From assembly GCF_988242995.1 (NCBI RefSeq), contig NZ_OZ547043.1: a stretch of DNA of 64,000 bases. One strand, 5' to 3'. Positions 51,562-56,493 of the stretch are shown here, in pieces. The notes under the pieces are model-generated. The model was not told the origin of the DNA. It worked only from the letters and a program-made list of their open reading frames with translations, and searched no databases. The translations under genes and the position numbers were made by a program. How positions within the stretch are numbered: position 1 is the first letter of the stretch; each line of letters starts with the position of its first letter.

Positions 51562-52029
51562 AATCGACCCGCCATAATCCCTGTAAGCAAACGACGCGTG
51601 TTACAACTGCCGCCGAACGACGTTCAGCGGATTCTTCCATCCGGGATAAGAAGGAAACGGCAAATACGACCAGCGCGCAGAGCATTGAGCGCCAACGTGG
51701 AAGGCTTAGTGAAAACGGGTAGTAATGTTGTCATCATCAGCATTCCTGGCCGTAAATGAAACACGCATACTCATAAGTGTGATCTATAAAACTGGCTGAC
51801 AAAACGGTATCCATCCTGTTGGATAGCGTTTCACGCCTGTTCAGTTGCAGGAACAGAGCATTCCTTATTACGTTTTATCAACAGTCTCAACCAGATAGTA
51901 ACATTAATATTCATGTTGTCTATGGTTCAGAGCTGTAACATTGTGCGCCTTCTAATCAAAGGCATAAGTCCATTTTTGTTTTTTTCATGCTGGTAAGACT
52001 TCCAGGGAGTGGTTATCTCAGGCCCTGCA

Positions 52030-52745
52030 CCAGGGTTAATTTGGCAATAAATATCCTCCGGCATAGCCGGAGGTTTTTCAAATGCGCCTATAAGGCTCTC
52101 TTACCAGCCGCGCCCTAACAGGCGCACACGATCTGACATTTGCATCCAACTTCGTTACTTACGGCCCGTAAACGGGCTGCCCGGATAGGGAATCGATAAC
52201 TGCTCTCCCATTTTATCCTCTTCAAGCTGGTGCTTTATGTAATCCTGTATCTTCGCCGTGTTCTTACCCACTGTATCGACGTAGTACCCTCTGCACCAGA
52301 ACTCCCTGTTCCTGTATTTGAATTTCAAATCACCAAACTGCTCGTAAAGCATCAGACTGCTTTTCCCTTTCAGATATCCCATAAAGCCGGATACGCTCAT
52401 TTTGGGCGGGATCTCCACAAGCATATGGATATAATCTGCACAGCATTCAGCTTCCAGAATCCGTACGCTTTTCCACTCACACAGCTTTCTCAAAATACTG
52501 CCTATTGCTCTACGCTTCTCTCTGTAGAACACCTGTCTTCGGTATTTTGGCGCAAAAACTATGTGATATTTACAGTTCCATCGGGTGTGCGCTAAGCTCT
52601 TTTCGTTCCCCATTGGGACCCCCTTTTGATTTCTTGTTTGACACTTGCAGTTGCCAGACCGCAAAGTGTTTTAACAAATCAAAAGGGGTTTTAATAACTG
52701 GCTCAAAGCTGAAAGCTTTCCGGAACCCCCAGCCTAGCTGGGGGT
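52030..52745 (-). mobile_element. IS200-like insertion sequence (IS200/IS605 family, tnpA only); boundaries approximate
   Basis: About 0.7 kb element containing a Y1/HUH transposase gene, with a perfect GC-rich hairpin (aacccccagc cta gctgggggtt) at the tnpA-upstream end as in IS200 left ends; absent from the K-12 arrangement. Confidence 0.7.
52155..52613 (-). CDS. tnpA: IS200/IS605-family Y1 (HUH) transposase TnpA
   Basis: 152 aa from MGNEKSLAHTRWNCKYHIVFAPKYRR; HUH-type motif (YIHMLV) and catalytic Tyr region; start refined from ORF 52155-52664. Confidence 0.85.
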   Translation of the reverse strand: MGNEKSLAHTRWNCKYHIVFAPKYRRQVFYREKRRAIGSILRKLCEWKSVRILEAECCADYIHMLVEIPPKMSVSGFMGYLKGKSSLMLYEQFGDLKFKYRNREFWCRGYYVDTVGKNTAKIQDYIKHQLEEDKMGEQLSIPYPGSPFTGRK

Positions 52746-54260
52746 TTTCTGTGCACAATTATGCATGCTGAACATTCTTCCAGCATGTTTACTGTCACGG
52801 GCGTTAAGACCTAAAACTGTCCCCGTTTCACCTATGCGTTCTCTTCCACCATTACCGTTATGTGCAACAACTTGATTTATACCTAACATTTGTGAGCATG
52901 CTAATAGTTCTTCAAGTTTCGGTCTGTAATCTGTCGAAACAGAAAAATAACGATTAAAGGATCGACAAGAGATAGCCCGGCTAGTTTTAAACTTTTTACC
53001 ATTAATGATGGCATGATGCTTCTTATTAATAATTGCCGCTAATTCGACCGGATCGAGAGCATTGGTCATTTCATCAATAGAGACTGTTATCGGTCCTATA
53101 ATGTAACGTTTTCGCTGATCATCAAAAGTTATCCCATGATGATTTGCCATTATTTTGTATTTGGGGTCATAGAAACATACAGGATAATCTTTTATCCCAG
53201 CGTAGGTATCCTCATCAAGTGGTTTCATACGCGTGAAGTTCTGCATATAGTTACCATTGCAATTCGTTTCATGATTACCAGCTAATACATGAACATTTTT
53301 ATTAATACTCATTATGCGTTTTAACAAATCGATGATAAATTGATCGCCACAGATATTACTAAATCGATCGCCGGTTTGGTCACCCAGAAACGTACATGGC
53401 GTCACTGCGCCCTGATTAATAACTAAATATGGCTGAAGACTTTCTAAAACCACATCTCTTCTGTTCAGAATACTGATTATTGTATTAACATTAATGTCTA
53501 GTTCCTCATTAATTTTTTCCCTTAATAAAACGTTGAGAACTTCATCTTCTATATTAAGCAACTGGCTAAGAAAATTTACTTCTTCAGCCATAATTCCCAA
53601 ATGTCCCGTTGCGAAAAGCGCGTACAAAACTGCACCGACTGAGCCATCGGTATCACCAAAATAGGTTGGTCTGGTACTTGTGGGATCAACGGGTGAACAA
53701 TTGGAGAAATAGATTCTGTCAGCGAACTGGGGTTTTATAATTGTTTCGAATTTAATATCAGATACATTGTATTGCGATATTTTCCAGTTCCAGATGGGTT
53801 TGTACGACTCAGTAACTGCAACATCATTAGCATTATCATTTACTGTCATATTATTAAGTAAATAAACAATGCTGCACCAATTAATATCGGTATCATCAAG
53901 AGGGCAACCGTAATTTTTACTATTAATTGTCACAATAAACTGATAACTATTATTCCTACGTAGAATATGGGCACGCATGCCCGATAGCATACTATATTTT
54001 TCTGAATGATTCGTTTCTATGGTAAATGAAATTTTGTCATCTTGAAAAGATTGTTGGAAACGTTCTATTTGCCAATCATCAATTTTTTCCACAACTTCAC
54101 CGAGCATTGTCCTGGCAATACTTGATATATCATCACCTATACCATTTGCAATATACCCAAACAGTTCTTTAGTGAAGTTAGTAACATGCTCTTGCACCAT
54201 ATCATTTGTTGCGATAGTCGTTATACTGTCGTTAGTACCTGCCACAGTTCCAATTTTCAT
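52734..54260 (-). CDS. yhiJ: DUF4049-type protein with C-terminal PPP-like metallophosphoesterase motifs; 3' end abuts or is altered by the IS200 end
   Basis: 508 aa; motifs GDTDG, GDQTGDRF, LAGNHE in PPP order; SD GAGGT upstream; paralog of the next gene; AT-rich. Confidence 0.8.
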   Translation of the reverse strand: MKIGTVAGTNDSITTIATNDMVQEHVTNFTKELFGYIANGIGDDISSIARTMLGEVVEKIDDWQIERFQQSFQDDKISFTIETNHSEKYSMLSGMRAHILRRNNSYQFIVTINSKNYGCPLDDTDINWCSIVYLLNNMTVNDNANDVAVTESYKPIWNWKISQYNVSDIKFETIIKPQFADRIYFSNCSPVDPTSTRPTYFGDTDGSVGAVLYALFATGHLGIMAEEVNFLSQLLNIEDEVLNVLLREKINEELDINVNTIISILNRRDVVLESLQPYLVINQGAVTPCTFLGDQTGDRFSNICGDQFIIDLLKRIMSINKNVHVLAGNHETNCNGNYMQNFTRMKPLDEDTYAGIKDYPVCFYDPKYKIMANHHGITFDDQRKRYIIGPITVSIDEMTNALDPVELAAIINKKHHAIINGKKFKTSRAISCRSFNRYFSVSTDYRPKLEELLACSQMLGINQVVAHNGNGGRERIGETGTVLGLNARDSKHAGRMFSMHNCAQKTPS

Positions 54261-54521: not shown

Positions 54522-56111
54522 TTAATGAGATTGAAAACAACTAAGCCCTGGGACACCTTTTTTATCACCACGTTCGTTAGGTGCTATCTTCCAGGAATTT
54601 AGCCCCATGGTATAATTATCAATTTCTTGATGCTGATCTACCCCTAATCCATAATGGCCATATTTCTGTTTACTTTTTTTGAGCGCCTGTCCACATTTGA
54701 AGATATCTTCAGGTTTTGGTCTGAAAGCAGTAGTGTTATTAAAATAATTGTCATATACAGGTGTGGATGCTATAGCATTGCTTCTAATTAGATGGATAAG
54801 ACGATCATCCATGTGTTGCTTATGTTTTTTATTAAATATATTTGCTAATTCCTCAGGATCAATTGGGTCTTTCATCTGATTAAATGGAACCTGCAAAGCA
54901 CCTAGACAATAACATTCATTTTCTTCATTTCTTATTATTCCGTGATGACTGGTTAAAACTTTCGTTTCTGAGTCATAATTACAAACATCGAGCGTTTTAA
55001 TTAAGTTATATCTATCACCGGAAGAGAGTTTATGATTTGCTAGTCGTGCACTATAGTTACCATTAAAATTGATTTCATGATTTCCAGCCAGAACGACGAC
55101 ATTTTTATTTATACGACTATCTTTATTACCCTCCATATTTCGCATAGAATTTAGCAAAGTAAGGATATATTTATCACCAAAAATAGTACTAAATCTATCG
55201 CCTGTATGATCCCCAAGGAAGATACAAGGGGTAATCGCATCGCCTTTTAAAAAAACATGTTGATGCAACTCATTCAAGATCATGTCTCTCGTATCTAATA
55301 AAGTGAAAAGTTTTTTCAATTTTTTATTTTCATATGCGAATGAAGCCATGTCTTCGTGTTTTAATAATTGACATAATAAACTCCACCCCTCTCCCCTGAT
55401 GCCTATATGCCCTGAAACGAGCAATGCATAAAGTACAGCGCCCACTCTTCCATCTGTATCGCCAAAATAAGCCGTGTTGGGATTTTTTGGGTTAATCACA
55501 CCACACTGTTTATAAAAGTCTATTTTTGAAAAAACAGATTCAACATAGCTATCAAACTTTTCCTTAGTAAACGTCTCTTTAGAGACAGCCCAACGCCAGT
55601 CAGCTTTAAAATTACCGCTAAGAAGAGTAAAAAAATTTTCAGGTATGATAGAAAACCCATCAACTTTATAAATTATGTCTGATTTATCCCCGGAGAAATT
55701 AATAAAATAATAACCGTCCTTACGCTCAATCGTAACGGTAATGGGAGACGATAATTTTATCACATGGTTATTGTCTGGTATAATTGTAAAGATAAACGTG
55801 TCAGTAGTATTATCGGCGAAACTATTATATTCTTTAATATCTATAGATGGCTCACTATTGTAAAACCACAGTTTTTCTATCTGAGGACTATGTTCAGTTA
55901 CGTTCCAGCAGCCATGTTGCAGGAAATAGATGATATGCAGGCCAAAATCGTTATCTATTTGCGAATGTTTATCCAGCTTATCAATTTCAACTATCTTTGA
56001 ACGATGTTTTTTATCAACATTGCCATGGTGTTGATGACTGTTAACTTTATCTGAATGCTTATCTTGATGGTTTGAAGAGAAGTGCTTAAATATATTGTGA
56101 AATACTTTCAT
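54522..56111 (-). CDS. yhiL: DUF4049-type paralog with PPP-like metallophosphoesterase motifs (intact here)
   Basis: Motifs GDTDG, GDHTGDRF, LAGNHE; His-rich N-terminal segment; start uncertain (56111 chosen, longest ORF reaches 56195). Confidence 0.7.
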   Translation of the reverse strand: MKVFHNIFKHFSSNHQDKHSDKVNSHQHHGNVDKKHRSKIVEIDKLDKHSQIDNDFGLHIIYFLQHGCWNVTEHSPQIEKLWFYNSEPSIDIKEYNSFADNTTDTFIFTIIPDNNHVIKLSSPITVTIERKDGYYFINFSGDKSDIIYKVDGFSIIPENFFTLLSGNFKADWRWAVSKETFTKEKFDSYVESVFSKIDFYKQCGVINPKNPNTAYFGDTDGRVGAVLYALLVSGHIGIRGEGWSLLCQLLKHEDMASFAYENKKLKKLFTLLDTRDMILNELHQHVFLKGDAITPCIFLGDHTGDRFSTIFGDKYILTLLNSMRNMEGNKDSRINKNVVVLAGNHEINFNGNYSARLANHKLSSGDRYNLIKTLDVCNYDSETKVLTSHHGIIRNEENECYCLGALQVPFNQMKDPIDPEELANIFNKKHKQHMDDRLIHLIRSNAIASTPVYDNYFNNTTAFRPKPEDIFKCGQALKKSKQKYGHYGLGVDQHQEIDNYTMGLNSWKIAPNERGDKKGVPGLSCFQSH

Positions 56112-56493
56112 AAATAACCCGTGATATTTTTGACTTGTTAGTAACAAAATAAATGACACATGTCTGAAAGACATTTTTACGATGATACAAAGCAATAATA
56201 CTTATATGTTCGATGATTTTAAGCACCGATACCATCCGGTCTTTTACCAAATAATGAAAAAGAATCCCTCCCTGGAAGATAATTGTAAAAAACAACAGAA
56301 TAAGAATTAATCTTAGGATAAATATTTATTTACCATGGCCTTTTGAACGCTGAAAAGTAGCGCTCTGCAAAGTAAATCCCGCTATAGTTATGCTATGCAT
56401 TTGTCTTTAATGATATCTCGTCATTATATTAACAGGCTGAAATTATCATTAATGCACATTTCAATATTAGCAGGGATACCTGAGGAGTTTAAA

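Follow-up and report, generated by a model that had tools for sequence, protein, structure and literature searches.

An intact yhiL allele in the AT-rich yhiJ–yhiL pair and its predicted Wip-like metallophosphatase domain

The yhiL gene was analysed in a 64,000-nucleotide (nt) stretch of DNA from contig NZ_OZ547043.1 of NCBI RefSeq assembly GCF_988242995.1 (hereafter the window). In most Escherichia coli genomes an AT-rich yhiJ–yhiL pair lies between yhiI and yhiM; its GC content in the window is 0.31–0.36, compared with 0.53–0.60 in the flanks. The window carries yhiL at the orthologous position between yhiJ and yhiM, and the local order, yhiJ (minus strand), yhiL (minus), yhiM (plus) and yhiN (minus), is that of both K-12 and strain MEI003, with the synteny yhiI-yhiY-yhiJ-yhiL/yhiM-yhiN-pitA shared with K-12 yhiL (b4660). 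Reading the frame and its translation confirmed that the minus-strand open reading frame at 54522..56195 is open throughout, as the initial annotation had claimed. It would give 557 amino acids from TTG 56195, 550 from ATG 56174 and 529 from ATG 56111; the 530–557 amino acids first reported for it were right at the upper end, whereas the figure of 530 had counted the stop codon. We take the coding sequence to be 54522..56111 (minus strand; 529 codons plus the stop), from the conserved ATG 56111. The 529-residue protein is 100% identical with an NCBI entry named 'DUF4049 domain-containing protein [E. coli]' (P0001). Among complete genomes MEI003 is nearest, with 99.7% identity over 2 kb, and its coding sequence from the Prokaryotic Genome Annotation Pipeline (PGAP) is likewise 1590 nt long. 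Taken together with the structural predictions described below, we consider it likely that 54522..56111 (minus strand) is an intact yhiL allele, the second gene of the pair, and that the C-terminal domain of its product is a divergent, Wip-like metallophosphatase of the PPP type. The intact gene, the exact protein sequence and the pseudogene status of the K-12 copy are already in public annotation.

In K-12 MG1655, yhiL (b4660; 1607 nt) is annotated as a pseudogene, so that the frameshifted state given by the initial annotation was borne out and the K-12 copy is not intact. To locate the lesion, we aligned the window allele with K-12 and with the intact K-12-type allele of strain GDSC2239PM (1608 nt, WP_000643701.1). 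The sole lesion in K-12 is a 1-nt deletion that converts GAAGAAAAAAAATGT, which contains a run of eight A residues (A8) and encodes E-E-K-K-C, into a run of seven (A7), opposite window positions 54915–54922. The slip falls after codon 396 of the K-12-type allele (after ...HHGIIRDEEK), and the K-12 frame then ends at codon 413. K-12 differs from its intact sibling allele by one substitution and the A-run gap only. The window yhiL is more distant, with 88.9% nucleotide and 81% protein identity to the K-12-type allele, and apart from the A-run gap its length differs from that of K-12 only by 18 nt, through an indel near 54677 that keeps the frame and lies just ahead of the last conserved histidine; the window allele is without this segment, which precedes motif V. 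At the equivalent of the A8 run (54915..54922, minus strand), the alignments showed that the window sequence, AAAATGAA, is interrupted; as GAAGAAAATGAATGT it encodes E-E-N-E-C and the homopolymer is absent. K-12 yhiL is broken because the A8 run of K-12-type alleles, encoding Glu-Glu-Lys-Lys, slips to A7; the window allele, which encodes Glu-Glu-Asn-Glu at the site of the K-12 frameshift, has no run to slip. A phase-variable (contingency) gene switched by a homopolymer should carry a slippery run in its coding sequence; the window copy has none, A8 being found in other alleles only.

We then surveyed 5426 complete E. coli genomes. A yhiL locus was found in 4197 of them, 80–99.7% identical to the window, and copies with at least 99% identity were confined to 185 genomes. 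Disruption was scored in 21 hits sampled evenly along the ranking: 14 were intact and seven, about one third, were disrupted, so that an intact yhiL is ordinary, being found in about two thirds of the sampled E. coli copies. The seven disrupted copies comprised four A7 frameshifts, one nonsense mutation at codon 42, one IS2 insertion and one IS1 insertion. The A7 lesion was present on three allele backgrounds (K-12, H14 and H22) that are 5–9%, or 82–139 substitutions, apart from one another, and two of these have intact A8 siblings only one mismatch and the gap away (H24 for K-12, H10 for H14). Repeated slippage accounts best for such a distribution, but local recombination may also have carried A7 on to several backgrounds. 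Used as diagnostic probes, an exact 87-mer with A7 matched approximately 1004 of the 5426 genomes, a tally that takes in many K-12 laboratory derivatives, and an exact 88-mer with A8 matched approximately 1747. All eight sampled copies with an interrupted run (window, O157 and 442/2 types) were intact. A recurrent lesion in K-12-type alleles, with run-less alleles staying intact, calls for caution in using K-12 as the reference at the yhiL locus. Besides the A7 frameshift, the E10 and JS01 alleles carry an 18-nt tandem duplication (AAATCAGACATAA[T/C]TTAT; opposite window position ~55672) in the DUF6860 domain, which encodes KSDI[I/T]Y twice.

The product would be a 529-residue cytoplasmic protein with a disordered Lys/His/Asp-rich tail, a DUF6860 domain and a C-terminal DUF4049 domain. 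DUF6860 (PF21661) spans residues 40–164 (55620..55994, minus strand; Pfam E = 9e-82) and DUF4049 (PF13258) spans residues 210–526 (54534..55484, minus strand), both far above the Pfam gathering thresholds (271 bits against 27, and 511 bits against 25, respectively). Intact family members of other E. coli strains (WP_000643701.1 and the 536-residue form of O157:H7) have both domains and the start codon in common with it. The YhiJ/YhiL family is tiny and essentially confined to Escherichia: among 1.84 billion representative proteins a search retrieved 50 clusters, nearly all of them fragments of E. coli proteins, and the real relatives were the paralogue YhiJ, orthologues in one other Escherichia lineage and a 720-residue metagenomic protein (P0140). 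The hit list of a profile search for distant homologues was filled up by near-identical E. coli proteins, and no new distant relative came out of it; PADLOC and PHROGs gave nothing significant, and a literature search found no paper mentioning DUF4049, DUF6860 or PF13258.

An AlphaFold model was built on an alignment of ten sequences (A3). The C-terminal domain was predicted with a local distance difference test score (pLDDT) of mostly 60–96, whereas the N-terminal half, with DUF6860, stayed below 50 in both the full-length and dedicated runs. The predicted model has the β-sandwich phosphoesterase fold, and Foldseek against the PDB placed WipA at the top (5n6x and 5y9o; E = 3e-6 to 6e-6, probability 1.00), followed by WipB (5nny; E = 3e-5) and then ApaH and PP5. 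The residues that are invariant among YhiL, YhiJ and P0140, which are only 27–34% identical, coincide with the phosphoesterase motifs. Motif I, GDTDG (residues 217–221; 55449..55463, minus strand), is invariant in all ten aligned sequences, YhiJ and P0140 included. In motif II, GDHTGDR (residues 300–306; 55194..55214, minus strand), every residue other than the histidine is invariant, and three residues rather than the two of GDxxDR separate the aspartates, a spacing shared with the active WipA and WipB. In motif III, GNHE (residues 343–346; 55074..55085, minus strand), Gly343 and His345 are invariant and Asn344 is replaced, by Asp, in P0140 only. His389 and His486 are also invariant among YhiL, YhiJ and P0140. 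Two predicted helices, at residues 242–261 and 265–285, fill an insert between motifs I and II, and Asp218 and Asp301 are 83 residues apart. The metal and phosphate ligands would then be Asp218/Asp220 (motif I), Asp301/Asp305/Arg306 (motif II), Asn344/His345 (motif III), His389 and His486. These motifs and the slippery A run are more informative than the features that the initial annotation had singled out, and were overlooked there.

Several observations weigh against the phosphatase assignment. The alignment behind the model is shallow, the mean pLDDT of the model is 59 and the template modelling (TM) scores to WipA and WipB are only 0.42–0.47. Motif I is DxD (Asp218-Thr-Asp220) instead of the canonical DxH, and the final histidine of the GHxH motif is missing (GHYG). 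No meaningful sequence match to a solved structure was obtained, whether with the single protein or with the family profile; the single-protein matches to phage gp5 (E ~1) are low-complexity noise. YhiL has no match to either Pfam Metallophos (PF00149) or the NCBIfam Wip family (NF043030). Weak independent sequence signals were obtained for the paralogue YhiJ alone, which scores 17.8 bits (E = 0.005) with the former, under the 21.5 cut-off, and 17.1 bits (E = 0.002) with the latter (T4SS_Wip), over motifs II–III only and against a cut-off of 300. In the model, the DUF4049 domain is nevertheless a divergent metallophosphatase of the PPP type with WipA and WipB as its nearest counterparts, and we infer for YhiL a phosphoesterase activity that depends on metal, most probably that of a protein phosphatase. 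An uncharacterized family thereby gains a testable hypothesis, that of a Wip-like PPP phosphatase, for which strains with window-like alleles, and not K-12, are the right material. The proposal that the YhiJ/YhiL family are myo-inositol oxygenases, which goes back to a yhiJ Keio knockout that failed to grow on myo-inositol in a study where the wild-type itself reached an optical density of only 0.017 (Orth and Palsson 2012; PMC3423039), is most improbable and was rejected on the fold, since YhiL has the fold and the motifs of a PPP metallophosphatase, no solved oxygenase is among the structural matches, and the growth test is very weak evidence that bears on YhiJ rather than YhiL.

Next, we considered the constraint on the gene. 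Between the window and the K-12/K-12-type allele, the non-synonymous (dN) and synonymous (dS) distances for yhiL are 0.107 and 0.193 (dN/dS 0.55). Against the other Escherichia species, dN/dS is 0.39–0.47 at a dS of ~0.8–0.9. The two termini are the most variable, and the core around motifs II–III (residues 271–390) has a dN of 0.007–0.036. In another Escherichia species (locus L010), the flanks are 93–94% identical with the window, but yhiL and yhiJ only 69–71%. The yhiL gene is thus old at its present site, fast-evolving, accessory, weakly constrained and often inactivated or lost. At that locus (L010 3448–7623; GCA_051322105.1), from a related Escherichia lineage, yhiL and yhiJ are found at the same site with no yhiM between yhiN and yhiL.

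The open frame might also belong to a gene that is dead or dying. In this case yhiL would have been acquired horizontally and silenced by H-NS, a relic on which selection is relaxed and whose window allele has simply escaped a hit so far. A second group of findings that counts against our interpretation would fit such a drift toward loss: the dN/dS of yhiL (0.5–0.64) is high compared with 0.02–0.16 in its neighbours (yhiM 0.02, yhiN 0.07 and yhiJ 0.16, for the window against K-12 or a K-12-type allele), one third of the sampled copies are disrupted by frameshift, nonsense mutation, IS1 or IS2, 1229 of the 5426 genomes (23%) gave no yhiL match, and the Shine–Dalgarno sequence is weak at all three candidate starts. 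The K-12 data on H-NS binding and on a promoter island with few full-length transcripts (see below) fit as well. However, dN/dS is clearly below 1, also in the comparison with the other Escherichia species, the core with the catalytic motifs is strongly kept, the motif residues are invariant in the paralogues and P0140, and the locus has stayed in place in a species with 6–7% divergence in the flanks. We thus regard a dying gene as possible, but as the less probable explanation.

A candidate yhiL promoter, TTTACA and GATTCT separated by 17 nt (GATTAT in K-12), was read at 56261..56289 on the minus strand. It corresponds to the K-12 promoter that was proposed by genomic SELEX (systematic evolution of ligands by exponential enrichment), together with H-NS binding (PMC3946193). 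The yhiL region of K-12 has also been described as a promoter island giving few full-length transcripts (PMC3661553). Expression of yhiL would probably be low. The density of promoter-like sites within yhiL was not significantly above that of shuffled sequence (15 compared with 10.5 ± 3.3), and the same scan found no terminator-like sites in the gene. A search for a canonical LexA box found none. The sequence CTGTTGTTTTTTACAA (56283–56298, minus strand) departs from the LexA-box core CTGT-N8-ACAG at a single position and overlaps the putative yhiL −35 element; such one-mismatch matches are not enriched in the window (11 found, 16 expected). A list of K-12 SOS genes places both yhiL and yhiJ among those induced late and weakly (PMC11002266).

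The N-terminal tail contains the His-rich polar segment HQDKHSDKVNSHQHHGNVDKKH (residues 15–36 of the 529-residue form; 56004..56069, minus strand), which the initial annotation had put forward as a possible metal-binding stretch. The segment is indeed present, with six histidines in 22 residues and nine in the first 50, and it might act as a metal-binding or delivery tail that feeds the phosphatase site, by analogy with the His-rich tails of some metallochaperones. In keeping with this, it is joined to a putative metalloenzyme, and it is almost invariant among E. coli alleles, near-identical even in nucleotides, while codons 2–13 diverge. The enrichment is marginal, however, as histidine makes up 5.3% of the whole protein and a 22-residue stretch this rich has a shuffle P value of 0.058. 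In the other Escherichia species the stretch reads NHENKHNKSKKVNHDQCNEN or NHEDKHSKSKKVNYDQYNEN, with HQHH replaced by HDQC or YDQY, and His15 and His19 are its only invariant histidines across species. Furthermore, the segment is predicted to be disordered (AlphaFold pLDDT 23–29), and neither the paralogue YhiJ nor the distant homologue P0140 has such a tail. A dedicated metal-binding role thus seems possible but weakly supported, and delivery of metal to the phosphatase site unlikely.

The initial annotation had also described the start as ambiguous, with two candidates (56195 and 56111) that both lack a strong Shine–Dalgarno sequence. Both candidates exist and the weak Shine–Dalgarno stands, but a third in-frame start, ATG 56174, had been overlooked, and comparison of alleles decides for ATG 56111 and leaves little real ambiguity. 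The predicted pairing with the 3′-end of 16S rRNA was −1.0 kcal/mol for TTG 56195, +0.6 for ATG 56174 and −3.2 for ATG 56111, compared with a local background mean of −2.3 and with −6.9 for yhiJ and −8.7 for yhiM. E. coli alleles carry a weak (A/G)GGT element 6–9 nt ahead of ATG 56111, and in L010 a CAGGC lies about one base nearer. We chose ATG 56111 because it is the only start common to all alleles and the other Escherichia species and because some alleles are stopped in frame just upstream: the E10, JS01 and 2020S05 alleles have a TAA six codons before the ATG, and the related Escherichia species (L010) has a stop three codons before it. PGAP also places the start at the equivalent of ATG 56111 in every copy inspected, intact or pseudogene. 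Translation therefore most likely begins there, yielding the 529-residue product.

A start at TTG 56195 or ATG 56174 would add the hydrophobic extension MLCIIVKMSFRHVSFILLLTSQKYHGLF, a possible membrane anchor or signal. No stop interrupts the frame as far as 56195, the O157 and 442/2 alleles share ATG 56174, and other gene callers have given 545-, 550-, 557- and 567-residue versions, making five N-termini in all. However, both upstream starts are missing from K-12-type alleles, of which many genomes have intact copies, with TTA at the position of TTG 56195 and CTG at that of ATG 56174; these two starts also pair worst with 16S rRNA, and nearly all of the differences between alleles in the extension alter the encoded residue. 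With the upstream stops in addition, we consider the longer forms very unlikely, and the 557- and 550-residue starts were rejected on the allele comparison. The 28-codon in-frame extension (56112..56195, minus strand; TTG 56195, ATG 56174) is most likely 5′-untranslated region and not coding. The comparison thus fixes the yhiL start where gene callers disagree.

The tandem paralogue yhiJ (DUF4049; 52734..54260, minus strand) is cut by IS200. The IS200-family element (52045–52754; tnpA at 52155..52613, minus strand) is inserted in the 3′-end of yhiJ after ...SMHNC and shortens YhiJ from 540 to 508 amino acids, with the displaced tail QINPGAGPEITTPWKSYQHEKNKNGLMPLIRRRTMLQL lying downstream as a remnant at about 51927–52046. 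The yhiJ/IS200 junction was spanned by none of the 5426 complete E. coli genomes. The window strain is thus the reciprocal of K-12, with yhiL intact and yhiJ damaged. One end of the element, adjoining tnpA upstream, matches Rfam STnc490, a family of Hfq-binding small RNAs (52623–52746, minus strand; 144.6 bits, E = 2e-30). On the other side of yhiL, the mechanical yhiM open reading frame (56395–57546, plus strand) reaches ATG 56395 (383 amino acids), and the annotated 350-residue YhiM starts at GTG 56494 with a strong Shine–Dalgarno sequence (−8.7 kcal/mol). A 430-residue protein from the representative search (P0122) combines a YhiL-like N-terminus of ~265 residues with the C-terminal part of the YhiJ of the same lineage (identical with P0123). 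It appears to be a YhiL–YhiJ chimaera, which could have arisen when the tandem paralogues recombined and a deletion resulted.

The closest known proteins, WipA (5n6x and 5y9o) and WipB (5nny), are Dot/Icm effector phosphatases of Legionella pneumophila, delivered by the bacterium into its host cells. Like motif II of YhiL, WipB (GDELVDR) and WipA (Asp180/Asp184/Arg185) have the GDxxxDR spacing, motifs I and II of WipB span 86 residues compared with 83 in YhiL, and a helical insert is likewise present in the Wip proteins. However, sequence identity to YhiL is only 15–19%, with no significant match between sequence models, and the DUF6860 domain of YhiL has no counterpart in the Wip proteins. 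Motif I is DxH in WipA and WipB but DxD in YhiL, a difference that again weighs against the assignment, as the H32A mutation abolishes WipA activity and His32 is thus essential. E. coli is not known to have a Dot/Icm system.

We also considered a bolder possibility, that YhiJ and YhiL form an enterobacterial branch of the Wip-type effector phosphatases, being active tyrosine or serine/threonine enzymes encoded by an ancient, rapidly evolving, H-NS-silenced islet and directed at a foreign target (host, protist or phage), with the A8 run as a reversible on/off switch and window-like alleles locked on. The fold, the GDxxxDR signature, the effector-like Pro/Ser-rich repeats of P0140 and the recurrent A8-to-A7 slippage all point in this direction, but we regard the proposal as speculative and improbable. 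P0140 (L009 1071–3233; Logan ERR10017540 contig, 49% GC) stands alone among the DUF4049 proteins found in being clearly non-Escherichia-like. In this 720-residue protein, ~330 Pro/Ser-rich, repeat-containing and probably disordered residues precede the phosphatase-like domain, and motif III reads GDHE.

Finally, the preferred reading of YhiL as a divergent PPP-type phosphatase was compared with bacterial-type enzymes of this class, namely the cold-active tyrosine phosphatase of Shewanella (1v73), ApaH (9ojd and 2dfj), RLPH2 (5vjw) and lambda phosphatase (1g5b). YhiL is much larger than these enzymes, from which it differs by its extra N-terminal domain, its predicted helical hairpin and its altered motifs I and V.

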